From an uncultured Candidatus Saccharibacteria bacterium (GTDB lineage: Bacteria; Patescibacteriota; Saccharimonadia; Saccharimonadales; CAZDQS01): a DNA stretch of 64,000 bases. The stretch is from assembly GCA_964507855.1 (NCBI GenBank), contig CAZDQS010000004.1, positions 14,888-78,887 on the forward strand. Direction: 5' to 3'. Position numbers and translations under genes: made by a program. The notes below the pieces were generated by a model. That model was given only the letters and a program-made list of their open reading frames with translations. It was not told the origin of the DNA and did no database searches. Numbering within the stretch: position 1 is the stretch's first letter; every line of letters begins with the position of its first letter. Of this stretch, positions 4,579-56,128 are shown in pieces.

Positions 4579-4706
4579 TATAAATCATCGCGCGCGGAAA
4601 CAAATGGGCTACTGGAGACAAATTCACCATAAGCGGGTATTGCGAGCTTTAGACACTAGCGGTACTATACATAGTAGAACCGAACAAAAGAGGGTAACAA
4701 AAAACA

Positions 4707-5996
4707 GTGGGACAGGGAAAAACATTTGTGGAGCTGAATGGCAAACGGTACGACACCCGGACCGGACGTGTGCTTGATATTGTCGCGCCAAAAAGCGCAG
4801 CAGTAGCCAAAAAGCCGCTTCACATCCGTAAGGCCAAACCCTCAACCGGCAAGCATGTTGACGGGTTCGTGCGCGCACATGCCAGCAAAGTCGCCGTAGC
4901 CGCACCAAAGCCGGCACCCAAGCCAGCCGCACCCGCTCCTGTCGCAGTTAAGACGGAGGAACCGAAGCCCAAGAAGCAAGTCGACCGCAACGTCAAGCAC
5001 CTTCGCCGTCGTTCACCGCAAAAGGCAAAAACGCTCATGCGTACCGCTGTCAAAAAGCCGAACAAGACACCTGTCCAGGCGATTGCCTCTCCGGTACAGT
5101 CATCACCGTATCTCTCATTCTTGAGCGAGCCGGCAAACATCATCACCGCACGTGTGGCTTCAGAGCGAGCAACCCGCGCTATCAAGACCCAGAAAAGCGC
5201 GCTCATCAGCCGCTTTGGCGAGCTTGAACAAGCCATTATCAAAAAATCAGAGCAGATAAATGTCCGTGTTGCGCCGTCAAGCCAATCATTCAAGCCCATA
5301 CCGCAGAACGTTCCCGTAACCCAGCCGGCCAAAAAGCCAGCCGTAGCGCAATCAGCCGCGCCGGCGCGCCCACAAAAACCAAGCACCCACAATGCTGCCA
5401 AGCCTCAGCACGCCAAACCCGCCCCGTCGAAGAAAGCCGACGAACTTTTCGCCAAGGCGCTTGAGTCCGCCACCAGCCACCAGCACAAACCCGCCCCCAA
5501 GCCGAAAGCCCGCCAACGGCTCGCCCACAGCTTAGGGATGAGCACGCGAAGCGTCAGCCTCAGCGCAGCGGCCTTGAGCGTCTTGCTGTTAGCTGGCTTT
5601 TTCGCGTACCAGAACGTACCAAATTTCGCTATGCGCCTGGCAGCCTCGAAGGCCGGTTTCGCTGCCTCAATGCCTGGCTACCACCCTGCCGGCTTTACCA
5701 TGGACGGGCCGATTGCTTACGGCCCAGGGCACATCACCCTCAACTTCAAGTCCACGACCGACGAACGCTACTACAAGATCACCCAGCGGCCCTCCAACTG
5801 GAACAGCGAAACATTACTTGACCAGTATGTCGCAGCCGAGCGCCGGTCTTACCAGACCTACCAAAACCAAGGCAAAACCGTCTACATATACGATGGCGCG
5901 AACGCGACCTGGGTAGACGGCGGCGTCTGGTTCCACATCGAAGCTAGCGACAGCCTCAATAGCGACCAGCTACTCAAAGTCGCCAGCAGCTTGTAA
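4707..5996 (+). CDS. Lys/Ala/Pro-rich membrane protein with DUF4367-like C-terminal domain (anti-sigma-factor-like architecture)
   Basis: GTG start; low-complexity N-terminal half, one TM (LSAAALSVLLLAGFFAY). C-terminus ends ...SDSLNSDQLLKVASSL, typical of DUF4367. Confidence 0.6.
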   Translation: MGQGKTFVELNGKRYDTRTGRVLDIVAPKSAAVAKKPLHIRKAKPSTGKHVDGFVRAHASKVAVAAPKPAPKPAAPAPVAVKTEEPKPKKQVDRNVKHLRRRSPQKAKTLMRTAVKKPNKTPVQAIASPVQSSPYLSFLSEPANIITARVASERATRAIKTQKSALISRFGELEQAIIKKSEQINVRVAPSSQSFKPIPQNVPVTQPAKKPAVAQSAAPARPQKPSTHNAAKPQHAKPAPSKKADELFAKALESATSHQHKPAPKPKARQRLAHSLGMSTRSVSLSAAALSVLLLAGFFAYQNVPNFAMRLAASKAGFAASMPGYHPAGFTMDGPIAYGPGHITLNFKSTTDERYYKITQRPSNWNSETLLDQYVAAERRSYQTYQNQGKTVYIYDGANATWVDGGVWFHIEASDSLNSDQLLKVASSL

Positions 5997-6307: not shown

Positions 6308-7735
6308 ATGAATACTGTTCGCACCCGATTTGCACCGAGCCCGACGGGATATTTGCACGTTGGCGGTATCCGTACCGCGTTGTTTGCCTGGCTGGTCGCA
6401 CGCCAGGCAGGCGGCCAGTTTATCTTGCGCTTTGAGGATACTGACAAGAAGCGGGAAGTCGAAGGCGCCCGTGAACACCTTATAAAAAGCCTCCGTACCC
6501 TCGGTATGGAATATGACGAAGGTCCCGACAAGGGCGGCCCGTTTGCACCCTATGTCCAAAGCGAACGCCTGGACAGTTACAAGGTCTGGGCACAGAAGCT
6601 GATTGATGCCGGCCGCGCCTATGCCGACCCGTACACGCCTGAGGAAGTGCAGAAGTTCCGCGAACAGGCGCAAGCAGCAAAACGACCGTTCCTGTACCGC
6701 AACCACCGCCCCGAAAACCCGCCTGCGTGGGATGGCACACGACCCTTGCGTTTTAAGTCCGACCCGAAGCCTTACCGTTGGCACGACGAAGTCATGGGCG
6801 ATCTTTCAACCGGCCCAGAAGTCATTGACGACTTTATCCTTATCAAATCCGACGGTTACCCGACGTACAACTTCGCGCATATTATCGATGACGCAGAGAT
6901 GGAGATAACTCATGTCATCCGGGGCCAGGAGTTCCTGGCAAGCGTACCGAATTACCTCAACCTCTATGAAGCACTTGGCCTAACACCGCCTATCATGGCG
7001 ACCATGCCACACGTACTCGGCCCCGACGGCAAGAAAAAGCTCTCCAAGCGTGACGGCGCCAAGGATGTACTGGATTATGTCCGGGAAGGCTACTTGCCGG
7101 AAGCGCTTGTAAGCTTTATTGCAACCTTAGGCTGGAACGACGGCACCGAGCAAGAAGTCTTTACCGTCGAGGAACTGATTAAAAAATTCAGCCTCGACCG
7201 TGTCCAGAAGAGCGGCGCGCGCTTTGATGAGCGCCGCCTGCTGTGGGTAAACGGCCACTTTATCCGCGAGCTGCCGCTCGACGAATTGTACATCCGGGTT
7301 AAGGAGTACTGGCCGGAAGAATCTGCCAGCTTTGATGATGCATATAAAAAGAGTGTGCTGGCTCTCGTACAGGAACGCCTCAAATTCTTTGCCGAACTGC
7401 CTGAACTGACCCGGTTTTTCTTTACCGACTTGCCGCTAAACCCCGAGCTTATAGGCACTCACAAGCAGCTGAAAAAGCTGTCCGGCGAGGAGCTGAAATC
7501 ACTGCTTGAGCAAGCACGCGGGATTATTGCTGATAGCGACTTCAGCGCTGAAGAACTACAAAAAGACCTGAACGAACTACTGGAATCCACCGGCCAGAAG
7601 CCAGCCGTATTGTTCAGCCTTATCCGCATAGCCACCACTCAAAGCCCAGCTAGCCCCGGCCTCGCCGAAACGCTTGCAATCTTGGGTAAAGAAACCACGC
7701 TCCGCCGCATCGACGAGCAACTAGCTCAGCTCTAG
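6308..7735 (+). CDS. gltX: glutamate--tRNA ligase
   Basis: RFAPSPTGYLHVGG (HIGH-type) and KLSKRDG (KMSKS-type) class I signatures; full-length 475 aa. Confidence 0.95.
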   Translation: MNTVRTRFAPSPTGYLHVGGIRTALFAWLVARQAGGQFILRFEDTDKKREVEGAREHLIKSLRTLGMEYDEGPDKGGPFAPYVQSERLDSYKVWAQKLIDAGRAYADPYTPEEVQKFREQAQAAKRPFLYRNHRPENPPAWDGTRPLRFKSDPKPYRWHDEVMGDLSTGPEVIDDFILIKSDGYPTYNFAHIIDDAEMEITHVIRGQEFLASVPNYLNLYEALGLTPPIMATMPHVLGPDGKKKLSKRDGAKDVLDYVREGYLPEALVSFIATLGWNDGTEQEVFTVEELIKKFSLDRVQKSGARFDERRLLWVNGHFIRELPLDELYIRVKEYWPEESASFDDAYKKSVLALVQERLKFFAELPELTRFFFTDLPLNPELIGTHKQLKKLSGEELKSLLEQARGIIADSDFSAEELQKDLNELLESTGQKPAVLFSLIRIATTQSPASPGLAETLAILGKETTLRRIDEQLAQL

Positions 7736-7888
7736 CGCCTCGGTGGCAGCCTTAACGTCTGCTTGCAGCTCAGCAACCTGGATAGCAACAACCTCCAGTG
7801 CATCTTCAATGCCTGCAACTTTACCGAGCGCAAGGCAGGTGAGTTCATTAAGTTCCGGCAGCCGCCGGTATTTCAAATTCTCTTTCAT
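7721..7888 (-). CDS. possible small coiled-coil protein (55 aa from internal ATG MKENLKYRR...)
   Basis: ORF only; convergent 15-nt overlap with gltX stop; the longer 87-aa version runs into a GC-rich segment and is unlikely. Confidence 0.2.
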   Translation of the reverse strand: MKENLKYRRLPELNELTCLALGKVAGIEDALEVVAIQVAELQADVKAATEALELS

Positions 7889-8050
7889 AATAATCAGTTT
7901 GTTAGGTTGAGCATGAGGGTGGGGGACGAGTCGGGAAGGGGTAGCCAGATGGCGACCATCATCTTCCGCGAGCCGTCCGCCCACACCTCATGTGCCGGGA
8001 TTTCCGGCGCAGTAGCAGACTTGGCCGAAGCCGAGCCTTGATCGTGCAGG

Positions 8051-8995
8051 TCAGAGGTCGAGAGACAGAAGCGCAACAGCGCCGATCGCTCCCGCCTTCT
8101 CTCCGAACTGCGACAACTTGACGCTGGGCTTCTGTGCCATGGTCAGTTCGTCGCGAAGCCGAGCCTCCAGCTCCTCGAGGAGCCACGGCTGCTTGGCAGC
8201 GATGCCGCCGCTAAAGGTTACCAGCGGGACATCGAGGAGCATCAAGGCGTTCCGGATCCCCATAGTCATGAGGCCCAGAATCTCCTTCCACTCACGACCG
8301 CCAGGCTTCAGCGCCTCAGCCGGCTGTCCGTAAGTTGCCCTGATGCCGTTGCCGCCAACGGAGGCCTCGAGACACCCGTACTGGCCGCACTTACACTGAC
8401 GCTTGCCACCGAAGAAGACTCGCTGGTGTCCGATCTCCGTCGGCCAGACCTTCGGCCGCCCTTCGATGTGCCGAACGATCGCGCCGCCGACGCCGGTTCC
8501 CCAGATCATGCCGAGGAAGTCGTCTTCCTGACCAAAGCCGTAGACGGCGTCTGCGAGTGCGGCCGCTTCGGCATCGTTGCCGAACACCACGGGACACTGG
8601 TTGGCGTCGCGGAAATATTCCACGATTTGCACGCCGACCCAATGGGGCAGGTTGGCCGACCCAGCAAGGTGGGTTCGCTCCGGGCTAACCTTGCCGGCGA
8701 CGGCCAGGCCGATGCCCTCGACGGGTCCATAAAGGTCCGCGAGGTCATAGATGGCCCGCTGAATAGCCCAGAGGTCATTCATGCAGCCAATCTCGCCCTT
8801 GTCGAGCGTCCGCTCTCGGACTTCTCTGCGGTCCACCTCCACGCCTTTGTCACGCGAAGGGAAGACACCGATCTTGGCGCTCGTGCCGCCAACGTCAATT
8901 CCAAGGTACAAGGTATTCTCCTTGCTCGGGGGGTCAATGACCCATGAACCTGCACGTGAACGATCGACCTTGAGCTCCTCGGTAACGAGGGTCAA
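8051..8995 (-). CDS. ROK family sugar kinase (glucokinase-like)
   Basis: LGIDVGGTSAKIG ATP-binding motif and CKCGQYGCLEA zinc/ROK signature. GC3-rich codon usage unlike its neighbours. Confidence 0.85.
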   Translation of the reverse strand: MTLVTEELKVDRSRAGSWVIDPPSKENTLYLGIDVGGTSAKIGVFPSRDKGVEVDRREVRERTLDKGEIGCMNDLWAIQRAIYDLADLYGPVEGIGLAVAGKVSPERTHLAGSANLPHWVGVQIVEYFRDANQCPVVFGNDAEAAALADAVYGFGQEDDFLGMIWGTGVGGAIVRHIEGRPKVWPTEIGHQRVFFGGKRQCKCGQYGCLEASVGGNGIRATYGQPAEALKPGGREWKEILGLMTMGIRNALMLLDVPLVTFSGGIAAKQPWLLEELEARLRDELTMAQKPSVKLSQFGEKAGAIGAVALLSLDL

Positions 8996-9182
8996 AGTAT
9001 GATTATTTTATAATAATGTAAGCTTTTTATCAAGATTGGTGCAGTCCGCTACCAGCTTTGTACAACATAATAAAATGAGGTATTGCATGAAGAGAGCGGG
9101 GCCGGGAGGCGGAGAGGTGAAGGCTGGCGCGTGATGGCCAATCTTCAGCGCTCTCCGCCGCCGGCTCATCTCCCTGAAGCAG

Positions 9183-9920
9183 CTAGCGCTGCTTCTTGTT
9201 CTTGCCCTTGCCCTTCTTCGGCGCCTCGGCTGCCTCCTCGGAGGAAACCTCCTTCGGCACCCGGCGCCTCCGCGACTTCTTGGACCGCGGCTTGCGGGCC
9301 GGCGTGACGTCGATGCCGAGACGGCGGACCGCCGCGGTGTCGCGTACCCAGTCCCAGAAGTCGTCGATGAGCTCGACCATCTTCAGGGCGTTGTCGCCGG
9401 TGTCCAGGGGCTGGCCGAGGACGTAGTGACAGTCGGGCTGGGTGGTGCCGCGGAACTGGCCGTAGAGCTTGTGCCCCACGACCTGGAGTCGCTGCCTCTC
9501 CAGCCACTGGGACCGGAGTTGCAGGTCCTGCTTGGTCCGCCGCAGGAGACTGAACCACAGGTAGTTCAGGTCATCCTGCGTCTTCGGCTCCACGTCGGCG
9601 TACGACATGAGGTCGTCGCGGCGCTCCTGCGAGAGCAGGGGATAGTGCGGGTCGGCCACCACGTCCGCGAAGGCCTCCAGGGTCTCCATGAGGCGGGCGT
9701 GGATACGGGTGAGCAGCGACTCGATGAAGTCGAGCCGCCGGGAGAGAGAACCCGGGGTGTACCCTCGGGCCCTGAGCTTGCCGATGCCACCGGAGCGGTA
9801 GTCGGCGAGGATCTTGGCCGGCTTGCCGTAGAGCCACGTACTGAGCGGGTGCTCGCACAGGCTGTTGAGGCGGGCCGTGAGCGGGCTGCTGACGGGACGG
9901 TCGACGAGCTGGGTACCCAT
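9183..9920 (-). CDS. hypothetical protein (245 aa) with Lys/Arg-rich C-terminal tail, high-GC
   Basis: Long ORF preceded by GGAGG 9 nt upstream of the ATG. The very high G+C generates spurious ORFs in all other frames. Confidence 0.6.
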   Translation of the reverse strand: MGTQLVDRPVSSPLTARLNSLCEHPLSTWLYGKPAKILADYRSGGIGKLRARGYTPGSLSRRLDFIESLLTRIHARLMETLEAFADVVADPHYPLLSQERRDDLMSYADVEPKTQDDLNYLWFSLLRRTKQDLQLRSQWLERQRLQVVGHKLYGQFRGTTQPDCHYVLGQPLDTGDNALKMVELIDDFWDWVRDTAAVRRLGIDVTPARKPRSKKSRRRRVPKEVSSEEAAEAPKKGKGKNKKQR

Positions 9921-10199
9921 GATCGGGCCCTCCTCTTCCTGATATCGGTTAGGATCAATGACCCAGGTTACACCCGAAACAGGATAGCTACGCTCGCTAT
10001 ATCGTTACAAGCATAGGTAACCTGTTTCGGTGGCAGCTACAGCCGACCGTCACACTCTCTTCATGCATTAATGTGCTAGCCTTACCGCGATAGCAGCAAA
10101 GCCTTGGCTCAAGATTGAGCTTGCGCAGCATTATACAATTTTTATGTTTTTTTGTCAATAATGCGTGTTGTACCCTGTGTCCTTGCTGAAGAAACGAGG

Positions 10200-12782
10200 T
10201 TAGCGAAGCCGGAGGATGCCGTCTTCTTCAGGGCTTATAAACTCTTGGGGCTTTGGAGAAGGTGCTTCCGGGCTTGGCTGCTGGGGCTGATCGGGTGAAG
10301 CTTGGTCTGTCTTTTTCTTGCGTTTGCGGGTGCGCTTGCGCTTTTTCTTTGGCTGCGCCTCTTCATCGAGTGGGCCGATCTCGCCACCAGCCGCACTGCC
10401 TACGGAAGGCTGGGGGAGCGGTTCGTGGGATGTCTCAGTCGGCATAACCGGCTGGGCTTCACGCTTCACTCGCGGTTTCTCACTCATCTGCCGAAAGGCT
10501 TGTTCTGGCGTCATGTAGCGGCCACGGACGTAATCTTCGATATCTTCGCGACGGTACGCATACCGCTGGCGACTACGCTGGACAATCTCACCCACAAAGT
10601 CTTCGCCAAACGGCGGCAAATCAAGCGATGTTGCCGAAAACGCCTGGGCCTTTTCGCCGTATATTGTCATGCTGATAACAAAGTGCCGGTTATGCATGTG
10701 CACCAGGTCGTACTCCAGGAATTTTGGTTCAAAATACCGCTGCATGACCCGCGCATCATCCGCGCCCATGCGAAAAGCGATAATTGAACCGACGTTGCCG
10801 AAGACCGCGTCTTTGACCTCCATAGACATCTGAGCAATGTACTGGTTAGCGACAGTGAGGTTCAGGCCGTACTTGCGGGCTTCAGACAAGATAGTCGCGA
10901 ACGATTCTGTGGCAAAGTTCTGGAACTCGTCAACATAGAGATAAAACGGCGACCGCTGGTCCTGAGGAATATCCGCCCGACTCATGGCGCCAAGCTGAAT
11001 TTTGGTCACCAAAAGCGCACCAAGCAGCGCAGCATTGTCCTCGCCGATAAGGCCACGCGAGAGGTTCACGACGAGAATTTTCCGCTCGTCCATAATCTGA
11101 CGAATATTGAAGCTGCTCTTGGGCTGGCCGATGATATTGCGCACAATCGGGTTGGCCGTAAAGGCGCCGACTTTGTTCAGCACCGGCGCAACCGCCTCGG
11201 CCTGGAATTTGTCATTCCAGCTGGCGAACTCCACCGTCCAGAAATTGCGCACCACCGGATCCTCGACGTATTTCAACACATCTTGGCGGAACTTTTTATC
11301 CGTCAGCATACGGGTGATATCGAGCATAGTCGAATCAGGGTAGTCAAGCAGCGCGAGCAAGCAATACCGCAGGATATATTCCAAACGCGGGCCCCACGAC
11401 TCGAACATGCGCTTCAAGACACCAATAAGCTCTGAAGCGGTGTGGGTCTTGAGCTTCGGGTCGTTCACCTCCATTGGGTTAAAGGCAATCGGGAAATCCG
11501 TATCCGCCGGGTTGAAGTAAATAACATCACTGACGCGTTCTTCCGGAATGCGACGCAGGATGTTCAGCGCGTAGTCGCCGTGTGGATCAATAACAGCAAA
11601 GCCGTACGGGCTGTAGATGTCAGATATCGTCAACAGCTCCAACATACCGGACTTACCAACACCGGTCTGTCCAATAATATAGAGGTGTCGTCCGCGGTCG
11701 GACCGCGGCAAGCCAAAAGCAGTGTTGTGGCCGCGGAAGTTGGTGATTGCGGCCGGGCTTATATCCGGCTGCTCCTGTCCGCTGAGGATGGGCAGATTAG
11801 CCGGCGGCTCGGCTGTGTTCGAGCTCGCCCAAAGAATAAATGGTGTTTCCACGTTGGTATGCGGCAAATGGTAGAGCGTAGCGATTTCTTCGATATTGCA
11901 GATAAAGCCCTTATTGAGAATTCGCTGACGGTAGACCTCAAGCGCGGCCGGGTTGTCCGTCAGCCGCCGTCCCGCGAAACCGTTCAAGTACGTGGTGTTG
12001 AACTGTTTGTAGCTGGCAATAATAGCCTGCATCCGCAACTTGGCCTGCGACGGGGGAAGGTTGCCGCGATAGACAATCCGAATTGCCGTCTCATATGCCA
12101 GCTTCTGGCTCTTTGTCTCAGCGCCCGTAATCCGAGCCTGCTGGTATTCCGTCAGCTTCACCGGTGCGGCGTCCTTGCCGTCAGGCGGTGTCCAGAGTGC
12201 AGTCATAGCCTTGGTAAAACCAAGACCGCCGCCGCTCCGCATGTTGGCGATGTAGCTTTCGCTCTTGCGATGCCAGTTGTCGGCTGCCGGCCGGACGACG
12301 TGCTGCAGCCACGCCTCCTCATTGTCCTCGAACTTCGCAAGCGCCGCTGTAATGGCCGCCAGCGGGTCAACCTCGAAGCTCTGGAAAGTCTTGATTGGCA
12401 AAGCTTCGTGACCAGTCAGCTTCAGTTCGGACATAAGGTTCGTCTCGTAGTGACCGCCTTCTTCTGTCGTGTAGTCTTGCACTTCAGAAATCTGCACGGT
12501 CGGATACTGGGCGTAGATTTGCTCCTCAACGAAGTCCTTCAGCTCCTCAGGCACCCAGACATAAAACGCAATGCGCTTCTTTCGTACTGCAATCTCGAGA
12601 CTGATCCGCTCCCGGACACTGGAAGAGAAGTAACCCGCCCGAGGACTCATCAACAGCCCATGCAGACTGGCAAACAGCTGCTCGGCGGCAAGCTCTTTCT
12701 TGTCATTCGTCCGCGGCACTTGCAGGAGCAGCACAACGCCGTTTTGAGACAGGGGAGAGGACTTATGGCGTTTCAGTATCAT
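10200..12782 (-). CDS. VirD4/TraG/TraD-like P-loop ATPase (type IV coupling-protein-like, FtsK/HerA superfamily) with Pro/Lys-rich tail
   Basis: Walker A GQTGVGKSG, Walker B LYVDEFQNF, TraG/TraD-type C-terminal region; no N-terminal TM helices evident. Confidence 0.8.
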   Translation of the reverse strand: MILKRHKSSPLSQNGVVLLLQVPRTNDKKELAAEQLFASLHGLLMSPRAGYFSSSVRERISLEIAVRKKRIAFYVWVPEELKDFVEEQIYAQYPTVQISEVQDYTTEEGGHYETNLMSELKLTGHEALPIKTFQSFEVDPLAAITAALAKFEDNEEAWLQHVVRPAADNWHRKSESYIANMRSGGGLGFTKAMTALWTPPDGKDAAPVKLTEYQQARITGAETKSQKLAYETAIRIVYRGNLPPSQAKLRMQAIIASYKQFNTTYLNGFAGRRLTDNPAALEVYRQRILNKGFICNIEEIATLYHLPHTNVETPFILWASSNTAEPPANLPILSGQEQPDISPAAITNFRGHNTAFGLPRSDRGRHLYIIGQTGVGKSGMLELLTISDIYSPYGFAVIDPHGDYALNILRRIPEERVSDVIYFNPADTDFPIAFNPMEVNDPKLKTHTASELIGVLKRMFESWGPRLEYILRYCLLALLDYPDSTMLDITRMLTDKKFRQDVLKYVEDPVVRNFWTVEFASWNDKFQAEAVAPVLNKVGAFTANPIVRNIIGQPKSSFNIRQIMDERKILVVNLSRGLIGEDNAALLGALLVTKIQLGAMSRADIPQDQRSPFYLYVDEFQNFATESFATILSEARKYGLNLTVANQYIAQMSMEVKDAVFGNVGSIIAFRMGADDARVMQRYFEPKFLEYDLVHMHNRHFVISMTIYGEKAQAFSATSLDLPPFGEDFVGEIVQRSRQRYAYRREDIEDYVRGRYMTPEQAFRQMSEKPRVKREAQPVMPTETSHEPLPQPSVGSAAGGEIGPLDEEAQPKKKRKRTRKRKKKTDQASPDQPQQPSPEAPSPKPQEFISPEEDGILRLR

Positions 12783-12935
12783 ATCTTATTATTATACAAC
12801 TTTTAGCAAGTTTATTCAAGAATAAGCACCTTTACTGCTTCTCACTATACACCGAATATACGCTTGCTAGAAGCCTGGAATAAAGAGACTGTTTTTGTTT
12901 TTCCAAAGCACAAGCTTTGTTACAATACCTAGGAT

Positions 12936-14195
12936 ATGTTAGATGATTTCCGCCCGCGCCGGAAACCGGCGCCAGTTGAACCTCGGCCAATGCCTGAGCC
13001 CGTCACGCCTGACGAGCCCACGGAGCTCGACACCGTCGACCCGCCAGACCCTCCACTTGCAGCACCCGCAGCTGAACCTGTCGTAGACGACACCACGAAA
13101 AAGAAAAACAATTTCATCCAGAAGCTCCGCAGCCGCATTCGTAGGCCCCGCAATAAAAAAGAATGGGCCATTCTTGTTGCGACTGTACTCATCGTTATCG
13201 GTGGCTTGAGCGGCGGCGCCTACGCACTATACAAAAGCCTGCAGCCAGAGCCGGTCCAGCAAGTCGTGGAACCCCCACCGCCAGCACCGGAGCCGCCACC
13301 TGAGCCAACCACCGTTGCCGCCAAATTAACAGGCTTGCAGGTAGAGCCGGAACTCAATAAGCGGCCAATTACCGGCATTATGATAGAGAACAGCCCGTCG
13401 GCACGTCCGCAGTCCGGCCTCAAGGACGCCGAAGTCGTCTTCGAAGCAGTTGCCGAAGGCGGCATTACCCGCTTCCTCGCGCTCTTCCACATTAACCGCC
13501 CGCAAGAGATTGGACCGGTCCGCAGTGCTCGACCATACTACGTGGACTGGGTAGCAGGCTTCGACGCCGGCTACGGCCACGTCGGTGGCAGCCCGGAAGG
13601 CTTGGCACACTTGCGTAACATTGGGGTCAAAGACCTCGACCAGTTTGGCAACCCAGGCGCCTACTGGCGTTCGAGCGCCCGCTACGCGCCACACAACATG
13701 TACACCAGCATGGATCGGCTCGATGAACTCAACAAGAGCAAAGGCTACACTTCAAGCAACTTCGCCGGTTTTGCCCGCTACGAAGACGAAGCGCCTGCCG
13801 AAACACCAACCGCCAAGACTATCGACATCGCTCTCTCGAGCTATCTCTACAACGTCCACTACGATTATGACCCCGCCAGCAACAGCTATAAGCGAGTCCT
13901 CGGCGGCCAACCTCATGTTGACGCACCAACAGGCCAGCAGATCGCCCCGAAAGTAATCGTCGCCATGGTCATGGCCAAGGGACGCAACGGTATCTACAGC
14001 ACCTACAACACCATCGGCAGCGGCGAGGCCATCATCTTCCACAATGGCGAATACGCGAGCGCCCGGTGGGAAAAAACCAGCAGCAAAGAACCCCTCAAGT
14101 TTACGAACGCCGAAGGCAAACCGTTCAAGCTCGCCCCGGGGCAAACCTGGATTACCGCCGTCGGCAGCCCAGCGGAAGTTACCCACGCCCCATAA
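12936..14195 (+). CDS. DUF3048 (YerB-like) domain protein, membrane anchored
   Basis: Pro-rich N-terminus, TM (ILVATVLIVIGGLSGGAYALY), then RPITGIMIENSPSARPQSGLKDAEVVFEAVAEGGITRFLALF, typical of DUF3048. Confidence 0.8.
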   Translation: MLDDFRPRRKPAPVEPRPMPEPVTPDEPTELDTVDPPDPPLAAPAAEPVVDDTTKKKNNFIQKLRSRIRRPRNKKEWAILVATVLIVIGGLSGGAYALYKSLQPEPVQQVVEPPPPAPEPPPEPTTVAAKLTGLQVEPELNKRPITGIMIENSPSARPQSGLKDAEVVFEAVAEGGITRFLALFHINRPQEIGPVRSARPYYVDWVAGFDAGYGHVGGSPEGLAHLRNIGVKDLDQFGNPGAYWRSSARYAPHNMYTSMDRLDELNKSKGYTSSNFAGFARYEDEAPAETPTAKTIDIALSSYLYNVHYDYDPASNSYKRVLGGQPHVDAPTGQQIAPKVIVAMVMAKGRNGIYSTYNTIGSGEAIIFHNGEYASARWEKTSSKEPLKFTNAEGKPFKLAPGQTWITAVGSPAEVTHAP

Positions 14196-18097: not shown

Positions 18098-18144
18098 TTG
18101 AAAGTACCAAAGTAAAAACCGGAGGCTAGCTCCGGTCATTACTT

Positions 18145-18299
18145 TGGTGACCTCACGGGGAATACAGGTATAATCCGCCCGTTTGCCAGCACGCTGGCGG
18201 GGGATTATCGAACCACCTGGGATTCGATTCCGTTTCTCGGCGAGAAACTACCAATGAAAAACACCCACCAAAAGAGTGGGTGCCTTTCATTGGTGACCC
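18145..18299 (-). repeat. 155-bp direct repeat, distal copy (starts with the 3'-terminal 19 nt of tRNA-Glu)
   Basis: 150 of 155 positions identical to 19168-19322. On the minus strand it reads terminator hairpin, three further hairpins, then ATTCCCCGTGAGGTCACCA. Confidence 0.85.
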
Positions 18300-18514
18300 T
18301 AACCAAAGAGACTGATGCCAGCAATTGTTAGTGTTTGTATCAAATATAAATAGCGTGAAACGCTGCTATACTTGCTCTTGCGGAAGTGCCTACTCTCCCA
18401 GGAAGACTGAGTAGCTCTACAGCTTATATAGCCCCTATCCCATATTCTTAGTGGTGACAGTTATTAGCCTGCTTATCTATGCAGTCAAGGCAGCAGCTAT
18501 CAAATCAGTCGTTT

Positions 18515-19090
18515 CTAATTGGTCGGTGATAGAGTTTTAATAGAGTCGTCCACTGATTTTCGGTAGGTGCCACTGAAGAAACCATCGCCCGCATGCGTGG
18601 GGTCATAGTAATAGAAGTAATCACCGACAGTCTTGTGAGACCAATTGTTTTGTGTTGCACAATCTTCGTTAGTATCACACCTAGCTAAACCTGATTTTGT
18701 ACCTGTCTTCGCTCGATACAGCAGACCCATCTTTTCCTGTGTCTCAGGACCACCACTTAGCTTACCCTCAGCTTCGAGCGAAGGACTGGTTAGACGAACC
18801 GATTCTATCCCCCTATAGTTTTGGTAGTTCTCGTAGGTGAGATCTTGAATCTCATTCGGTACACTAATTTGCACACCCCATTCTTTAATATCGAGGTATT
18901 TACTATTGCTTGCTTCTTTATTTGCTTGATTTGTTGCTGATGACTGTTCGAATTGAGCAGTGCTGGTAGTCTCTTTATTCTTGTTGCTCTGGCGGTCGTA
19001 TACGAGCCAACCCACAGCTCCAAGTAGTCCAACTACAACTACTACGATAAGTATTTCAACGACACTAAAACCTTTTTGATTAGCTTTCAT
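18515..19090 (-). CDS. type IV pilin-like protein (prepilin-type N-terminal cleavage/methylation domain)
   Basis: MKANQKG/FSVVEILIVVVVVGLLGAVGWLVY: G-F cleavage site, Glu at +5, hydrophobic helix. AAGGAG SD upstream of this ATG. Confidence 0.8.
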   Translation of the reverse strand: MKANQKGFSVVEILIVVVVVGLLGAVGWLVYDRQSNKNKETTSTAQFEQSSATNQANKEASNSKYLDIKEWGVQISVPNEIQDLTYENYQNYRGIESVRLTSPSLEAEGKLSGGPETQEKMGLLYRAKTGTKSGLARCDTNEDCATQNNWSHKTVGDYFYYYDPTHAGDGFFSGTYRKSVDDSIKTLSPTN

Positions 19091-19167
19091 ATATTCTCCT
19101 TTATTCTCCTTATGCTCGTTTATAACATGAATGAAATAAAAAAGCACTTGTTAAAGTACTCAATCAT

Positions 19168-19322
19168 TGGTGACCTCACGGGGAATACAGGTATAATCCG
19201 CCCGTTTGCCAGCACGCTGGCGGGGGATTATCGAACCGCCTGGGGTTCGATTCCGTTTCTCGGTGAGAAACTACCAATGAAAAACACCCACCTGAAGAGT
19301 GGGTGCCTTTCATTGGTGACCT
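19168..19322 (-). repeat. 155-bp direct repeat, tRNA-proximal copy
   Basis: See 18145-18299. Its last 9 nt (19314-19322) are the real 3' end of tRNA-Glu. Confidence 0.85.
19276..19313 (-). terminator. Rho-independent terminator directly after tRNA-Glu
   Basis: Minus strand: GGCACCCAC-TCTTCAG-GTGGGTG followed by TTTTTC. Confidence 0.7.
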
Positions 19323-19388
19323 CACGGGGAATCGAACCCCGATTGCCAGGATGAGAACCTGGTGTCCTAACCGTTAGACGATGAGGCC
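19314..19388 (-). tRNA. tRNA-Glu (anticodon CTC)
   Basis: Manual cloverleaf: GGCCTCA/TGAGGTC acceptor (one G.U), D arm GTCT-AACGGTTA-GGAC, anticodon arm CCAGG-TTCTCAT-CCTGG, T arm CGGGG-TTCGATT-CCCCG, encoded ACCA. Confidence 0.92.
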
Positions 19389-23262: not shown

Positions 23263-23925
23263 ATGAGGTTAAACCGATACATTGCGCTCGCCACCGGCAT
23301 GAGCCGCCGGGCTGCTGATAAGGCAATTACAGCCGGCCAAGTGCTTGTAAATGGCCGACGGCCCGATCTTGGTCAGGACGTAACAGATACGGACCAGATA
23401 ACGCTCGGCGGCCAAAAACTAACAAACCATGTCAATATATTGACATACTTGCTCCATAAACCCATCGGTTACGTCAGCTCACGAGACGGACAGGGAAATA
23501 AGACTATCTACGATTTGCTTCCACCAGAGCTTCACCACCTCAAGCCGGTCGGGCGTCTGGACAAGAACTCTTCTGGCCTGCTTCTTCTCACCAATGACGG
23601 CACGCTCGCCTACGAGTTGACCCATCCAAGCTTCCAAAAAACCAAAGTATACAAGATTGCCCTCAATCGGCCGCTAGAGAGCGCAGACAAGTCAGCAATC
23701 TTAAGCGGCAAGGTCATGCTGGACGGTCTGCCGAGCAAGCTCCGTCTTGAACCTATCAACGACCGGGACACGACTAACTGGAAAGTTATCATGCAAGAAG
23801 GCCGCAACCGTCAAATCCGCCGAACCTTCGAAGCTGTTGGCTATAACGTCGTCAAACTCCACCGCACACACTTCGGTCAGTACTCATTGGGTGGTTTAAA
23901 CGAAGGTCAATTTACTGTTGTATAA
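23263..23925 (+). CDS. pseudouridine synthase, RsuA/RluB family (S4 domain + catalytic domain)
   Basis: MRLNRYIALATGMSRRAADKAI (S4) and GRLDKNSSGLLLLTNDG catalytic Asp motif. Confidence 0.85.
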   Translation: MRLNRYIALATGMSRRAADKAITAGQVLVNGRRPDLGQDVTDTDQITLGGQKLTNHVNILTYLLHKPIGYVSSRDGQGNKTIYDLLPPELHHLKPVGRLDKNSSGLLLLTNDGTLAYELTHPSFQKTKVYKIALNRPLESADKSAILSGKVMLDGLPSKLRLEPINDRDTTNWKVIMQEGRNRQIRRTFEAVGYNVVKLHRTHFGQYSLGGLNEGQFTVV

Positions 23926-24794
23926 GAAGCTATCCCTAAAGTTCCCAGCCCGGCCTGGCCGATAGCTTCAACAATTCTGGGATTAGGATAAAAAGAATCG
24001 TGCAATGAGGCATACTCTTGCCGTATTTGTTCTACAATACAGTCTGGCACGCCAGCAAATACATCTCCATCACTGGTGCGCAATGCTTGATAATTGGCGC
24101 CGACATGGTAAGCCTCTAACTCTTTACGCCATTGAACTTGGAGATATTCATCTGTATTAAATGGCATAATAGGATTGCTAAGAGCTTGCACAACATGTTG
24201 TAGCTCATGGGCGAGCACAGCCTCCCCCTTAAGCCGGCTGCATGGCGTGTCGTCGCTCATAGAGAGCATAGCAATAGGTTTCCCGGTAAAAATGCGGGTG
24301 TTGTCTCCCCCTAGATTTGGGTACAAGAATGTACTAAGTGTTGAACTGGCGGCCGGATACGTAACTCGTCCGTTATATCCATCAATCGACCATGCGTACT
24401 CCCATCTCTTAAATGCCTTTTCGATACATTCGACTACATCCCATCCCGCGAACCCTTTGGCTTCATCAATAGCCCATGCTTCTGCAGTTTCAGCTACGCG
24501 CAACCGTTGTTCGGGGCTCATGGTTTTCAATGAAGCATCCAGCCGCAGCGTCTCCCCTGGCTTCATAGCTATCACAGGAGTAGTATTCGCATCTCTGTGC
24601 TTCTTAGGAGCACTCACCGTTCCGTCTTTGATATTTGGCACATACAGAGCCTCGGCAGCACACAAGAGGTCCACTGCAAACTTCCCTAAGACCGCCTGCG
24701 TTTCTTCCCAGCTTAGTACCTCGATAACTTCTTTTTGGACGCGCTCCACAAACCTTGAGCGACGACGGGCTTCAAAAGAGACAAACTGCATCAT
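23907..24794 (-). CDS. hypothetical protein with HExxH metallopeptidase-like motif
   Basis: VLAHELQHVVQAL motif; otherwise no recognisable family; 19-nt convergent overlap with the preceding gene. Confidence 0.55.
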   Translation of the reverse strand: MMQFVSFEARRRSRFVERVQKEVIEVLSWEETQAVLGKFAVDLLCAAEALYVPNIKDGTVSAPKKHRDANTTPVIAMKPGETLRLDASLKTMSPEQRLRVAETAEAWAIDEAKGFAGWDVVECIEKAFKRWEYAWSIDGYNGRVTYPAASSTLSTFLYPNLGGDNTRIFTGKPIAMLSMSDDTPCSRLKGEAVLAHELQHVVQALSNPIMPFNTDEYLQVQWRKELEAYHVGANYQALRTSDGDVFAGVPDCIVEQIRQEYASLHDSFYPNPRIVEAIGQAGLGTLGIASYTTVN

Positions 24795-27215: not shown

Positions 27216-27257
27216 GAGCCTGCAGAGGGGGTGGGCACCGCTGCAGGCTCATTTTTA
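27216..27257 (+). terminator. Rho-independent terminator-like hairpin
   Basis: GAGCCTGCAG-15 nt-CTGCAGGCTC followed by ATTTTT; lies 140 nt after the pth stop. Confidence 0.6.
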
Positions 27258-28627: not shown

Positions 28628-28939
28628 ATGACCAACGAGGCAGTCCTGGACCTCGACCACACCGACGACAACGCTCCGGTGTACATCGCCGACATCCCCG
28701 TAGAAATCACTCTTCATGCCTTAGGGCATGTGGATCGGCTGAACGATTCGGCCATCATCGACTGCTTCACCTGCACTGGTGAGAAGACGTTCCTCGTGCA
28801 GCAGCACCAGTTCCTGGATGGGACGCACCACGTCAGTGGTGTCTTCGACCCGTTCGGGGACTCCATCGACGCCCGTTTCACCTGCACGCTCGACTTCCAG
28901 TCGGACATGGAGACGTGCATCATCAAGCGTGTCCGCTGA
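28628..28939 (+). CDS. hypothetical acidic protein (103 aa), GC3-rich
   Basis: ORF with GAGGAG SD and an upstream promoter candidate. Codon third positions are strongly G/C, unlike the flanking genes. Confidence 0.6.
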   Translation: MTNEAVLDLDHTDDNAPVYIADIPVEITLHALGHVDRLNDSAIIDCFTCTGEKTFLVQQHQFLDGTHHVSGVFDPFGDSIDARFTCTLDFQSDMETCIIKRVR

Positions 28940-32423: not shown

Positions 32424-33464
32424 ATGCCTGACACTGAAGTACAAGCCAAGACGTTGAACATCGAAGTCATTGTTAATGACGTCCTGGAGACTATTGAACG
32501 AGAGCGTGAGCGTGAAATTGTTGCTCGACGCTTTGGCTTGTTTGATCGCAAGGAAACACTGGAGCAAATCGGTGAACTCCTTGGTATTACCCGTGAGCGT
32601 GTCCGCCAGCTTGAGAAGGCTGTCGTCGCCCGCCTCAAGGCCGCTGCCGGCAATGACCTGCCGCACATCGGTGAAATCGAAGAGACATTCGTCACCCACC
32701 TGCGCGAACTCGGCGGCGTCAGTCGTATCAGCAACCTCAGTGAGCGTTTGACGGCTGAGAACAGCCGGGTAGACCAGGCACGTGTATCCTTCCTCGCCCA
32801 GCTCTGCCCGCAACTCGTCGTTATTGATGAAAACGACCACTTTTACCACTCTGCCGGTTTGGCCGAACTCCATGACGAGAAGGCCCTTAAGGCTCAGGTA
32901 GCCAAGATTATTGACGCCATCAAGAAGATCGGTGAACCGACCCAGATAGACAAGATTGCAGAAGCCGTCGGCGATGCCGATCCGGCACATACCGAAGCAC
33001 TCGCCAGCACCTCGAAGCACCTCGCGACTCTCAACGGCCGCTGGGGCCTCGTCAAGTGGCCGATGGTCAACCCCAAGAACATCCGCGACAAGATCTACGT
33101 CATCCTGCACGACAACAAAAAGCCGCTGCACTTCAATGAAATTGCCGACGCTATTAAGAAATCCAGCTTCAAGCGCAAGGATGTTACCACCCAGGCTATC
33201 CATAACGAGCTCATCAAAGATAAGCGCTTTGTCCTCATTGGTCGTGGTATCTACGCCCTCAAGGAATGGGGTTATGAGCGCGGCACCGTTGCCGATATCA
33301 TCGCCGATGTCCTCAAGAAGGCCGGTGAACCGCTACACCGCGACGAGATCGTCAAGCGCGTGCTGAAGAGCCGCCAGGTTAAGGAGACGACTATTCTCCT
33401 GAACCTCCAGGGTAAGCCGCAGTTCAAGCGTGTCGCCAAGGCCACCTACGCGCTCGCTGAATAG
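32424..33464 (+). CDS. sigma-70 region 4-like HTH plus HARE-HTH (RpoE-delta-like) domain protein
   Basis: REREIVARRFGLFDRKETLEQIGELLGITRERVRQLEKAVVARLK (region 4). C-terminal LHFNEIADAIKK...RFVLIGRGIYALKEWGYERG repeated HARE-HTH-like modules. Confidence 0.75.
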   Translation: MPDTEVQAKTLNIEVIVNDVLETIEREREREIVARRFGLFDRKETLEQIGELLGITRERVRQLEKAVVARLKAAAGNDLPHIGEIEETFVTHLRELGGVSRISNLSERLTAENSRVDQARVSFLAQLCPQLVVIDENDHFYHSAGLAELHDEKALKAQVAKIIDAIKKIGEPTQIDKIAEAVGDADPAHTEALASTSKHLATLNGRWGLVKWPMVNPKNIRDKIYVILHDNKKPLHFNEIADAIKKSSFKRKDVTTQAIHNELIKDKRFVLIGRGIYALKEWGYERGTVADIIADVLKKAGEPLHRDEIVKRVLKSRQVKETTILLNLQGKPQFKRVAKATYALAE

Positions 33465-33489
33465 CGAATTTTCTTAATGCATAAAACCT

Positions 33490-33526
33490 GCCCTCCTGTT
33501 ATTGATTAAAAACAGGAGGGCTTTTA
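33490..33526 (+). terminator. Rho-independent terminator
   Basis: GCCCTCCTGTT-10 nt-AACAGGAGGGC followed by TTTTAT. The 3' arm doubles as the SD of the next ORF. Confidence 0.7.
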
Positions 33527-33527
33527 T

Positions 33528-33773
33528 ATGGGCAAGAAGGACGAAATAGGGCAGGCAGACGTACCACTTGTGTCAATGCAGCCGCTATGGGAGCTGGGCA
33601 TCACAGAAGTCACAGGGCATAATCTGGAAACCCAGGGAAGGAAAGAAGTAAACCGGCTACTCAAAGAAGGATGGCTGCTTTTGCACGTCTATACGTTAAA
33701 ATATCAAGAGGACAACATCTGGCGTGAGCGTCCTATGGCAATCCTTGGCCTCCCCGGCAAACACTCGGACTAG
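33528..33773 (+). CDS. hypothetical protein (81 aa)
   Basis: ORF with AGGAGG SD. Confidence 0.45.
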   Translation: MGKKDEIGQADVPLVSMQPLWELGITEVTGHNLETQGRKEVNRLLKEGWLLLHVYTLKYQEDNIWRERPMAILGLPGKHSD

Positions 33774-33819
33774 CACGACGTTTCGCTCCCTTACGCAAAC
33801 ATAACCAAAAGGAGGAACA

Positions 33820-34095
33820 ATGACGAGCGAGGTACAGAAAGATACCTTCGCTAATGATGCATGGCTTAATGATGCCATGAAGAAAGCGGCCGCGATTGCG
33901 GAACAACAAGGAAGAACAACCGAAGATGTGCTGCATAGCGCTCTCAGGCTGGGCCTGGAGGGTATACAGCTTGGCGAAGATGTCGTCGCGGTCATAGGAT
34001 TAGGCAGACAAGTGGCCGCCCGTACAGAAAGCTGGGCTGACGCGCTCGGTCTTTCCCCAGAAGCCTACGTCGAGAGACGACTTATGAACTCATGA
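33820..34095 (+). CDS. hypothetical protein (91 aa)
   Basis: ORF with AAAGGAGG SD 5 nt upstream of the ATG. Confidence 0.5.
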   Translation: MTSEVQKDTFANDAWLNDAMKKAAAIAEQQGRTTEDVLHSALRLGLEGIQLGEDVVAVIGLGRQVAARTESWADALGLSPEAYVERRLMNS

Positions 34096-34157
34096 CAACT
34101 GTACAAAATACGAACAGTCATTGTGCCTAAACTCATGGCTCGAAAATTACATAAAGG

Positions 34158-34182
34158 CACGGCACCACAGCCGTGTTTTTAT
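34158..34182 (+). terminator. Rho-independent terminator
   Basis: CACGGC-ACCACA-GCCGTG followed by TTTTTAT. Confidence 0.65.
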
Positions 34183-34851
34183 ATGGATGACAGTGAGTAG
34201 GCAAGCATGGAAAAAATTACGCAGAGCATGTAGGAAAAACTATAAAAATAGCAGCCCAGACCGGCAGCAGAGCACATGAAAGCAAATATAGACTATATGT
34301 CGCACAATGTATATTTTGCGACTCTATATTGTAGATTAAAGATGATAACTCATACGTCCCCTGCAGGGGAGTAATCCGCCGTTTGCGCGTATTATCGCGC
34401 ATAACTCGCTCCTCGCAGTGTACGCGTCATGTTTGCATTACCACTCCATGATGCCGCCATCAAGTACTTGTGCATTGGCGTCCAGTACGCACTGTGAGAA
34501 TTGCAACATTGCCAGAGTTTTCCACATGTGAAAACTTGCATTATTTGACTTTTCACGTTTTTGTAACTTTATTATATATTTCCCCTGCCTCTCACTCTTT
34601 TCCCCGTTTTTGACTTTTGCCCTATTGCATATTGTTATATAGTTTTTTGCCACCCGACCCTGTACTTCCGTATATGAACAATTTACGAACATCTAGGGGA
34701 GAAGCGGGGACGAAAGAGCTTAGCGTGGCTTTGTTGGTACAGACGTTGATACAGCCTTATCGCAGCAAACTATATGGTTACCAAAGGCACGAGCACTATT
34801 GCCGCAAACAGAAAGCAGAGCTGGCTTGCCCTTCCCTCGCCGAGAGATAGG

Positions 34852-46995: not shown

Positions 46996-48237
46996 ATGAG
47001 GCATAGCGAGACGCAAGTTGAATTTGAGCCATACTATTATGATTTGTCTTCCGGCTCATTATTGACCACGGAAAATAATATCCAAAGAATTGAACTCGGA
47101 AACTCTCCCCGTAACCTCGAGCAACTACTATCTCTTGGGCGTATAGCATTGTTGAGCGAAACCTTCTCGCCGTCCATCACTGACGAAGATCCGCAGATAC
47201 ACAAGCTTGCTTCTTTGTTAACTTACCCCTTGCCAGATATCAAAATAGATGCTTACCAACATCTCAACACTCGCCAGTGGTCGGTCGAAGATTTCAAAGA
47301 TTACGGAAGGTGGTTAGCAATGTTGTGTCATCAGAAAGATAAAAAATTAAACAAACAAGTAGTGACTAGAGCCTTTCGACTGGGGATTGGCCCCAGCATA
47401 AGAAGCATCACCTACGGGCGGTTTTCGTCTATGAGTGAGTTTTATAGTGCATCGGGTGCGGAAACAGCACATAGAGTCTATACCATCGCAGATTGGTCAC
47501 TTGAAGATTGTGTCGATTATATCCGAGAAGCTCTAGCACCAATCGAAAAGGTCGGCAAAATATATGCTCAGGATTATTTGAACGAATTCGCTCAAAAGAC
47601 GAAAGGACCTACTGCCACAGTATTGTGTAGGCATACCTCACTTACGGTTAGAGAACTTATGGATCTTGCGGGATACCCTAATGTCAGAAAATGGAAAGAA
47701 GCTGATTTCGTTTCGTGGGGCGTTAAGTTCATGTTTGCAAATAATGGCACTCTACCGACTACCCCGGCTCTAAGAAACCTGGCCCTTCAGGGACGGGGAC
47801 CATCCGTAAAAGCAGTACAAGTTCAATTTTCAACTATTCCCGACTTTCAAAAGAAAACAGCAAGACGGTTTGAAGAAGCGAGCTCTGAATTCACAGAACG
47901 CTTATTACAACTCGGCTCGCATCTGTCATCTCGCTGTGATGCTGAACCGCTACTTCGCACAGCTACCCCCCTACCGGCACGCGTACGCAGACTAGCGCAA
48001 TATTACTTACTGGAAACAACACATGTAAATATGCAGCCCTGGCTGAAAGTAATAGTCGCCAGAATTGATTCCGCGGAAAAGTTTATATCCGCCATCCAAC
48101 AACACTCTCCCTCAACAACCAAGGGACACATGCAAATAGCAGCTCGGCGTATTGGGGTTTTCGGAGATATCTGGGAAACCGATCTGTCTTACCTCGACTA
48201 CCTACGTGTCCTGCCAAAAGATGAAGACGATTACTAA
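46996..48237 (+). CDS. hypothetical protein (413 aa), visibly lower G+C than neighbours
   Basis: Long ORF with AGGAG SD; no recognisable domain. Confidence 0.6.
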   Translation: MRHSETQVEFEPYYYDLSSGSLLTTENNIQRIELGNSPRNLEQLLSLGRIALLSETFSPSITDEDPQIHKLASLLTYPLPDIKIDAYQHLNTRQWSVEDFKDYGRWLAMLCHQKDKKLNKQVVTRAFRLGIGPSIRSITYGRFSSMSEFYSASGAETAHRVYTIADWSLEDCVDYIREALAPIEKVGKIYAQDYLNEFAQKTKGPTATVLCRHTSLTVRELMDLAGYPNVRKWKEADFVSWGVKFMFANNGTLPTTPALRNLALQGRGPSVKAVQVQFSTIPDFQKKTARRFEEASSEFTERLLQLGSHLSSRCDAEPLLRTATPLPARVRRLAQYYLLETTHVNMQPWLKVIVARIDSAEKFISAIQQHSPSTTKGHMQIAARRIGVFGDIWETDLSYLDYLRVLPKDEDDY

Positions 48238-51315: not shown

Positions 51316-51613
51316 TGGTTAATCATATCACCTACGCGCTGCTCCTGAGGATGTAAAAAATTGGGGGCGCTACATGTGGCGGCTACACCGTAGGACTTGA
51401 CACCATTTTACATAAGCGATAAGCTAGTCTTTGTGTGTTTTTTCCGAGGTGGAGAATCCGCACATTTTACCCCTGTAACCAATTAACAGAATTAATCGAG
51501 GGCTTCGCCCGGATCACGAGGCGCATTTCCGAAAAATCGGAAATGCCGGTCATTCGCGAAGCCCTTATATAATTAATTACCCGGCAGGGGGGTATAAGGA
51601 GGTGTAACCCAGT

Positions 51614-56094: not shown

Positions 56095-56128
56095 ATCCCT
56101 CAATAATAGCATTAACAGCTGCGGAGTT

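Follow-up and report, generated by a model that had tools for sequence, protein, structure and literature searches.

Two adjacent genes of high GC content in the genome of an uncultured Candidatus Saccharibacteria bacterium raise a question of origin: were both taken recently from the actinobacterial host of an episymbiont, as an earlier note on this DNA had proposed, or do they have separate histories? One of them encodes a ROK-family sugar kinase, and the other a protein of 245 amino acids which we call the orphan. They lie in a stretch of 64,000 nucleotides (assembly GCA_964507855.1, contig CAZDQS010000004.1, positions 14,888 to 78,887), referred to below as the window, whose coordinates are used unless another locus is named. 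We consider it fairly probable that the two genes differ in history, the kinase belonging to the lineage of the Candidate Phyla Radiation (CPR) and the orphan being recently acquired foreign coding DNA. The GltX protein of the window (6308-7735, plus strand) shares 76-82% identity with hundreds of proteins, among which several are named Candidatus Saccharimonadales; because it is about 80% identical to proteins of named metagenome-assembled genomes (MAGs), the window is assigned to Saccharimonadales, and the premise of a CPR episymbiont holds. The argument turns on the following features.

9183-9920, minus strand: orphan gene, 245 aa, with an ATG start; predicted helical body followed by a polybasic tail.
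9097-9182, no strand: non-coding, GC-rich (0.58-0.70) 3' flank of the orphan, with foreign-type composition past the stop codon.
8051-8911, minus strand: ROK-family sugar kinase gene, 286 aa, with a TTG start at 8911 and AAGGAG at 8918-8923, 6 nt upstream.
7887-8050, no strand: GC-rich (0.60-0.67) stretch 3' of the kinase gene, apparently non-coding (fine-scale GC; no open reading frame matching Pfam).

The GC content of the window is 53.2% overall, with 1-kb bins spanning 0.45-0.63. It climbs to 0.61-0.69 in two blocks, at about 7900-8950 and about 9070-9920 (window 0.532); the jump in composition described in the earlier note for about 7900-10000 is therefore real, and was overstated insofar as the rest of the window has 53% GC. 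The AT-richness ascribed to the spacer, the flanks and the whole window applies to one part of the spacer, 8950-9070. The spacer between the genes measures 187 nt and has a GC content of 0.30-0.43 at 8980-9069, its portion at 9070-9182 is GC-rich, and the outer flanks of the two-gene region have 52-58% GC. Near the genes, AT-rich stretches are confined to promoter-bearing spacers, namely 8950-9070 (GC 0.30-0.47) and a similar one at 10090-10150, and what had been called an AT-rich native context comes down to sigma-70-like promoters of an ordinary type, the genome having 53% GC. When GC at each codon position was computed for the 47 long open reading frames (ORFs) of the window, GC at third positions (GC3) had a mean of 0.61 and a standard deviation (sd) of 0.09, and exceeded 0.70 only in the ROK gene and the orphan. 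Overlapping spurious ORFs fill the six frames over both genes in the ORF listing, as had been remarked. The almost exclusive use of G/C-ending codons, which had been attributed to both, is found in the orphan (GC3 0.93) and not in the kinase gene (GC3 0.75).

In the orphan, GC1/GC2/GC3 equal 0.66/0.44/0.93, which places its GC3 3.5 sd above the mean; the highest value over 245 codons elsewhere is 0.73 in other genes and 0.78 within the ROK gene. Each of its two-fold codon families ends in C or G in 88-100% of cases, except for the two Cys codons, and GTC is preferred over GTG, GCC over GCG and ACC over ACG. C-ending codons are favoured by the background genome too, the orphan showing an exaggerated form of this preference. 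Its dinucleotide delta*, computed over 850-nt windows and given here x10^-3, reaches 212-221 compared with 80±27, the top of all such windows and about 5 sd out. Since this GC-normalised signature is extreme as well, the anomaly exceeds what GC alone would produce. The GC-rich composition extends past the stop codon by about 90 nt and breaks off sharply at the start codon, and the strong three-base periodicity shows that the orphan evolved as a coding sequence in its present frame. A recent horizontal origin of the orphan, from a donor of high GC, is thus well supported by its GC3, its dinucleotide signature, the GC-rich 3' flank and its absence from the corresponding site in relatives. According to the regressions of Muto and Osawa and of Lawrence and Ochman, a GC3 of 0.93 would imply a donor genome of about 70-74% GC.

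The site occupied by the orphan is itself variable. Its main elements are these.

7736-12935 (5.2 kb), all genes on the minus strand: variable segment between gltX (6308-7735, plus strand) and a DUF3048 gene (12936-14195, plus strand).
10200-12782, minus strand: VirD4/TraD-like P-loop ATPase resembling type IV coupling proteins (T4CPs), 860 aa; Pfam TrwB_AAD_bind, DUF87 and TraG-D_C, NCBIfam TraD.
7721-7886, minus strand: candidate small ORF of 55 aa, helical (MKENLKYRRLPELNELTCLALGK...), overlapping the gltX stop by 15 nt.

In the window this slot contains the VirD4-like ATPase gene, the orphan, the ROK gene and possibly the 55-aa ORF. Loci used for comparison carry labels such as L010; L001-L003 are Logan contigs matching the window itself. 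In L014, L015 and L016, whose GltX is 80% identical to that of the window, gltX and the DUF3048 gene are separated by just 35-50 nt, and the slot is empty; the gene order there is sortase, PEGA, a 400-aa gene, gltX and DUF3048. In L010, a Saccharimonadales contig with GltX likewise 80% identical, the slot holds a ROK gene alone. In L039 it holds a VirD4-like ATPase gene, a 66-aa ORF and an unrelated GC3-rich ORFan of 414 aa. The gltX/DUF3048 junction was found in four states among Saccharimonadales (window 7736-12935; L010 1-3746; L014/L016 8001-10775; L039 1455-12155), and it looks like a recurrent hot spot of insertion or rearrangement.

Searches for relatives of the orphan protein returned almost nothing. 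A word-indexed search of 5.8 billion clusters yielded the orphan only, and a full phmmer search of 1.84 billion representatives yielded it and one other protein, P0126. The latter was rejected as a homologue: it is a beta-rich repeat protein, the query being helical, and its E-value adds up nine near-identical matches of 28 bits, all with a stretch of 34 aa. Pfam gave no match for the orphan or for six alternative-frame ORFs of the same DNA, which excludes a known gene read in another frame. A single PHROGs match (E 0.011) had no passing stretch and was disregarded, and nothing was found in NCBIfam, PADLOC, PDB sequences, a tblastn search of phages and plasmids or a scan of IMG/VR viral contigs; neither did tblastn detect a match in any of the 96 related loci. 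The initial impression of a protein without a recognisable domain was therefore correct as far as Pfam, NCBIfam, PHROGs and PADLOC are concerned, and so was that of a basic tail: 17 of the last 40 residues are lysine or arginine (pI 11.7). The remaining body of 205 residues is neutral (pI 7) and predicted to be soluble and helical. An AlphaFold2 model of the whole protein was poor (predicted local distance difference test, pLDDT, 50) and all-helical, with a pLDDT of 82 for the N-terminal 91 aa, and Foldseek searches of PDB and BFVD gave no match with E <1. From the tail and the predicted helical body, the tail would probably bind nucleic acid or another polyanion, an assignment of low certainty.

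The kinase presents a different picture. The ORF 8051-8995, which had been taken for the ROK gene, is the maximal ORF and overstates it; the start is placed at TTG 8911 (MYLGIDVGGT), because AAGGAG lies upstream, a public gene call gives 286 aa and the members of its clade all begin with MYLGIDxGGT. The ROK domain PF00480 is matched over its full length with 110.1 bits (cut-off 22.9), the match covering positions 1-291 of a profile of 294. The motifs DxGGT, GNDAEAAA, ExGH and CxCGxxGCxE are conserved across 11 clade members, in whose alignment D6, G8, G9, C173, C175, C180 and E182 are invariant. No N-terminal helix-turn-helix precedes the domain, the protein opening directly at MYLGIDVGGT, which argues for a kinase and not a repressor. 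It falls below the cut-offs of all NCBIfam equivalogs, the best being TIGR00744 with 89 bits against 260, so that none of them assigns it a substrate. Judged by its sequence, this is a glucokinase-like sugar kinase with a zinc motif. It resembles the ROK sugar kinases of the GlcK/NagK type (PF00480) in its full domain, N-terminal DxGGT ATP motif, ExGH, CxCGxxGCxE zinc motif and lack of a DNA-binding domain, and differs from them in being shorter than a typical GlcK and in its clade, which is specific to CPR and shares only about 30% identity with characterised families.

An actinobacterial origin of the kinase was not borne out, its closest relatives being CPR proteins. The top matches (P0003-P0012) are 41-48% identical and lie on contigs of about 50-54% GC, after which identity falls to 30% or less. 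A scan of species-representative genomes gave six loci, four of them from named CPR groups (Saccharimonadales, Peribacteria, Woesebacteria and Shapirobacteria), one from an unclassified bacterium and one from a MAG labelled Pseudomonadales (L012, 127 bits). The named relatives score 115-165 bits; beyond the close clade the best matches reach 86-93 bits, the first named one being a Chloroflexi protein (86 bits), and named ROK proteins of Actinomycetota are only 30-35% identical over partial length. In a rough neighbour-joining tree without support values, the kinase groups with its close clade and a Saccharimonadales sequence, other CPR sequences form the sister group, and the ROK proteins of Janibacter, Saccharopolyspora, Capillimicrobium and an Actinomycetota MAG belong to clades remote from these. 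The ROK homologue in L010 (37% identity) is convergent with gltX and adjoins the DUF3048 gene; the ROK gene of the window has this site and this orientation too. The kinase is thus, on the evidence of its sequence relatives, a lineage-typical, resident CPR gene, and a recent import from Actinobacteria is refuted.

The composition of the kinase gene is also milder than that of the orphan. It has a GC content of 0.62, its GC3 exceeds the mean by about 1.6 sd, and its dinucleotide signature does not stand out (79th-95th percentile). On two other contigs of the clade, with unrelated gene contexts, the ROK gene is the GC3-richest gene (L004, 10001-10870, 0.72 against a mean of 0.56, z 2.4; L005, 29-877, 0.75 against 0.50, z 7.2), and GC3 is mildly raised in other members. 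The likeliest cause of the excess would be transfer within CPR from a GC-richer relative, and the kinase gene may be moving among CPR genomes. Of the proposed recent horizontal acquisition of both genes, the part that concerns the orphan accords with its composition and its absence from the slot in relatives; the part that concerns the kinase conflicts with its CPR relatives and with the synteny in L010.

How, then, could a foreign gene be expressed at this site? The elements that bear on this are listed below, together with a repeat that brackets the orphan.

10130-10158, minus strand: promoter-like site preceding the orphan, TTGACA-17-TATAAT, a perfect match (12/12) to the sigma-70 consensus.
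9921-10129, minus strand: structured 5' leader of the orphan, about 210 nt, containing a Shine-Dalgarno sequence and a long hairpin (9974-10030).
9005-9033, minus strand: promoter-like site TTGATA-17-TAAAAT upstream of the ROK gene, within the one AT-rich portion of the spacer, 10/12 in the consensus scan.
10055-10070, no strand: right arm of a 16-nt inverted repeat, CTCTCTTCATGCATTA, partner of 9081-9096, the orphan cassette lying between the arms.
9081-9096, no strand: left arm of the same repeat, TATTGCATGAAGAGAG, partner of 10055-10070 (15/16), at the onset of the GC-rich block.

The consensus scan found two promoter-like sites in the region where 0.7 would be expected. A Shine-Dalgarno sequence, GAGGAGGG, lies at 9928-9935, 8 nt before the orphan ATG. 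With a consensus promoter, a structured leader and a strong Shine-Dalgarno sequence in front of it, the orphan is predicted to be expressed, probably. The folding energy of the leader RNA is -77.9 kcal/mol (z -3.2), 2 of 200 shuffled sequences being equally stable. The 10-bp inverted repeat pointed out earlier (9974-9983 / 10021-10030) is present, and in fact extends to arms of 21 nt (9974-9994 / 10010-10030) which are 86% complementary. Hairpins with at least 10 perfect pairs and loops of 3-60 nt number 19 in the window, against 3.1 in Markov-1 simulations, and because of this six-fold enrichment the leader hairpin is probably functional; other examples lie at 18106-18149, 27216-27251, 33490-33522 and 51499-51566. 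The leader hairpin has no U-tract. No Rfam covariance model matched the leader, whether the gathering score was required or E-values of up to 5 were admitted. An integron attC-like site was considered and rejected, since CCGAAAC/GTTTCGG, compared by eye, misfits the RYYYAAC/GTTRRRY cores and no integrase lies nearby. The leader, the spacer and the flanks showed no similarity to intergenic DNA of the 96 related loci.

The 16-nt inverted repeat that brackets the orphan might represent the termini of an inserted element, which is suggestive only. Its motif has one other match in the window within three mismatches (28708-28723, two mismatches), and its 13-nt core was not found in the other fetched loci.

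The course of events that fits the evidence best would be as follows. The orphan, together with about 90 nt of its 3' flank, would come from a donor of roughly 70% GC and would have been inserted between the VirD4-like ATPase gene and the ROK gene, in a recombination-active slot, where it would have become placed behind a native-type promoter, leader and Shine-Dalgarno sequence. Natural competence could have been the entry route, as Saccharibacteria are described as naturally competent and able to import DNA (PMC10633639, in excerpt). Cultivated members are described there as living on Actinobacteria (PMC10633639, in excerpt). Derivation of the orphan from an actinobacterial host is plausible, the one argument for it being the GC content estimated for the donor. 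Like acquired ORFan islets of the type described by Lawrence and Ochman, the orphan has atypical GC3 and dinucleotides, is absent from the site in relatives, has no homologues and lies in a variable slot; unlike them, it is a single-gene cassette for which no integrase, tRNA gene or direct repeats were found, with the marginal 16-nt inverted repeat only. As it stands, the locus looks like an ordinary gene-acquisition islet, with one uncharacterised ORFan beside an ordinary kinase gene.

Several competing explanations have to be considered. Recent acquisition of both genes from a high-GC Gram-positive host, that is, an actinobacterium, seems to us unlikely. The preference of the orphan for C-ending codons would be compatible with high-GC Actinomycetota, and both genes are GC-richer than their surroundings. 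The organism is moreover a member of Saccharimonadales, and cultivated Saccharibacteria are described as growing on Actinobacteria (PMC10633639, in excerpt). On the other hand, such an origin is contradicted by the nearest relatives of the kinase, which are CPR proteins, by the remoteness of the Actinomycetota ROK proteins in the rough tree and by the synteny in L010, and the databases searched contain no homologue of the orphan, whether actinobacterial or not. It is about equally improbable that the orphan is native and owes its extreme GC3 to a local process, either translational selection in favour of codons ending in C or G, or a recombination hot spot with GC-biased gene conversion. Such a process would be in keeping with the preference of the background genome for C-ending codons, with a slot that is recombination-active and has four different states in relatives, and with the sporadic occurrence of domain-less ORFs with GC3 of at least 0.80 in other Saccharimonadales loci. 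However, it would not account for the GC-rich non-coding 3' flank or for a GC-normalised dinucleotide signature that is the extreme of the window, and the adjoining ATPase gene in the same slot has an ordinary composition. Furthermore, GC3 of the GroES/GroEL genes in L029 is not above that of their neighbours, an observation that speaks against GC3 being selected for in genes of high expression.

A somewhat better case, still a doubtful one, can be made for the orphan segment being recently imported foreign DNA that is not (yet) functional, an incidental insertion in which the ORF is the reading frame of the donor. The lack of homologues, domains and fold matches would fit this, as would the ability of GC-rich DNA to keep long ORFs open by chance, illustrated by a 196-aa antisense ORF covering the same DNA, and the reported import of DNA by Saccharibacteria (PMC10633639, in excerpt). 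However, the orphan ORF covers the whole GC-rich block in the GC3 frame, its ATG is preceded by GAGGAGGG at 8 nt and by a 12/12 promoter, and the sequence is identical and undisrupted in four assemblies. To an artefact of assembly or binning, in which DNA of a co-occurring high-GC organism was misjoined into a CPR contig, we give almost no credence. The contig is metagenome-assembled and the switch in composition is abrupt, which is what a misjoin would produce, but three Logan contigs from different runs (SRR7082984, SRR7082976 and SRR7082966) are 100% identical to the window and span both junctions. Their coverage (L001 8093-11682, L002 8585-10938, L003 9039-10383) includes native-type sequence on either side of the orphan.

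The explanation that we favour, a resident CPR kinase next to a recently acquired orphan, has difficulties of its own. No donor homologue of the orphan appears among about 15 billion public proteins, which would be odd for a well-sampled donor group. Mobility genes, tRNA genes and target duplications were not found at the orphan locus: none of the neighbouring genes carries a mobility-related Pfam domain, and the nearest tRNA genes, at 1506-1590 and 19314-19388, are several kb away. About 7% of simulated 2.8-kb regions hold a 16-nt repeat such as the one flanking the orphan, which is thus not statistically secure. The term 'recent' reflects the lack of amelioration alone, because no relative with GltX more than 82% identical shows the slot before insertion. 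The intact ORF of the orphan is weak evidence of function, as long ORFs arise easily in GC-rich DNA. For the kinase, simple vertical descent does not explain the GC3 excess and the GC-rich 3' flank at 7887-8050.

A separate problem is the relation of the orphan to the VirD4-like ATPase encoded immediately upstream. The composition of the ATPase gene is native (GC3 0.67), and its product is 53-74% identical to proteins encoded in 80 metagenome loci, nearly all with other gene contexts; it is a core Saccharimonadales gene in an unusual position. At many of these loci TopA and a sigma-r4/HARE-HTH gene precede it and dcw genes follow it, and in its closest relatives it sits in a different conserved block. 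The corresponding site in the window (33465-34851), which is bounded by the sigma-r4/HARE-HTH gene at 32424-33464 and by the dcw cluster, contains small ORFs only, the ATPase gene being 21 kb off. With TopA, the sigma-r4/HARE-HTH protein and dcw genes as its usual neighbours, the neighbourhood was rejected as a type IV secretion system (T4SS) cluster, and Pfam found no virB4 or relaxase gene in the scanned part of the window (about 300-41000). T4CP (VirD4) homologues of CPR are mostly encoded apart from virB4, and one of them is non-essential in Southlakia (bioRxiv 10.1101/2025.01.22.634366).

The arrangement recalls T4SS coupling proteins (VirD4/TraD) with their substrate genes, in that the orphan follows directly on a VirD4/TraD-like ATPase gene and has a positively charged tail. 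Positively charged tails act as signals in some T4SS substrates. The arrangement differs from such systems in that the ATPase gene belongs to the core set and mostly stands in unrelated contexts, and in that the orphan has no relaxase or virB4 gene nearby and no recognised secretion motif. That the orphan is a substrate of the ATPase is thus possible but unsupported. The idea that GC3-rich or basic-tailed genes systematically follow the ATPase gene found no support across the 80 loci. The 55-aa ORF at the other end of the slot matches the 66-aa ORF just downstream of the L039 ATPase gene with 35% identity over 46 aa (tblastn E 0.004); as this match is weak, their kinship rests mainly on shared position.

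GC-rich ORFans occur elsewhere in the order. The 414-aa ORFan of L039 (9298-10542, plus strand) has a GC3 of 0.82, against about 0.60 in its neighbours, and no domain; hydrophobic segments are predicted in it, and its C-terminus is rich in arginine. Its place in the slot corresponds to that of the orphan, but the two are unrelated in sequence. Mutually unrelated ORFs with GC3 of at least 0.80 are found sporadically in other Saccharimonadales contigs of 45-56% GC (L008 5908-6474; L016 15875-16651; L043 1336-1884; L073 1374-1868; L085 930-1391; L090 5009-5428; L094 1367-1903), and none has a significant Pfam domain, one sub-threshold TPR hit apart. GC-rich ORFans may be a general feature of Saccharimonadales. 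Kinship of the orphan with these ORFs was rejected for lack of similarity.

Other irregularities of composition were noted in the window. Low-side GC3 outliers (0.38-0.45, mean 0.61) are the genes at 18515-19147 (minus strand), 46996-48237 (plus), 23907-24794 (minus) and 55639-56337 (minus); the first carries a type IV pilin N-methylation motif, and the dinucleotide signature of the region 18100-19100 is deviant as well. The second most deviant signature lies at 4700-5700 (delta* 150-164), where the gene 4707-5996 (plus strand) encodes a protein of 429 aa that has a K/R-rich stretch and no domain; its synteny is conserved, with an identity of only 32-35%. The ORFs 61784-62842 (plus strand) and 61795-62970 (minus strand) overlap nearly fully; atypical GC1/GC2 (0.46/0.66) of the former suggests that the latter is probably the real gene.

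The locus provides a clean small case in which a reduced epibiont genome has probably taken in a foreign gene, and it corrects an attractive but wrong inference, as the ROK kinase is a gene of the CPR lineage and not an import from the host. A more far-reaching proposal, which we regard as a long shot, is that the orphan founds a new protein family, captured by a competent Saccharibacterium from a (possibly actinobacterial) host or the mobile elements of that host, and domesticated beside the ATPase gene, with a native promoter and a structured leader in front of it, to serve the interaction between epibiont and host as a secreted or nucleic-acid-binding factor with a polybasic tail. If this were true, the gltX/DUF3048 slot would be a recurrent landing pad for GC-rich cargo, as the L039 ORFan hints. 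The slot could be mined for host-derived cargo across Saccharimonadales MAGs, and if the donor of the orphan were found among co-occurring organisms, it would offer a rare clue, drawn from a genome, as to which organism hosts an uncultivated member of Saccharimonadales.

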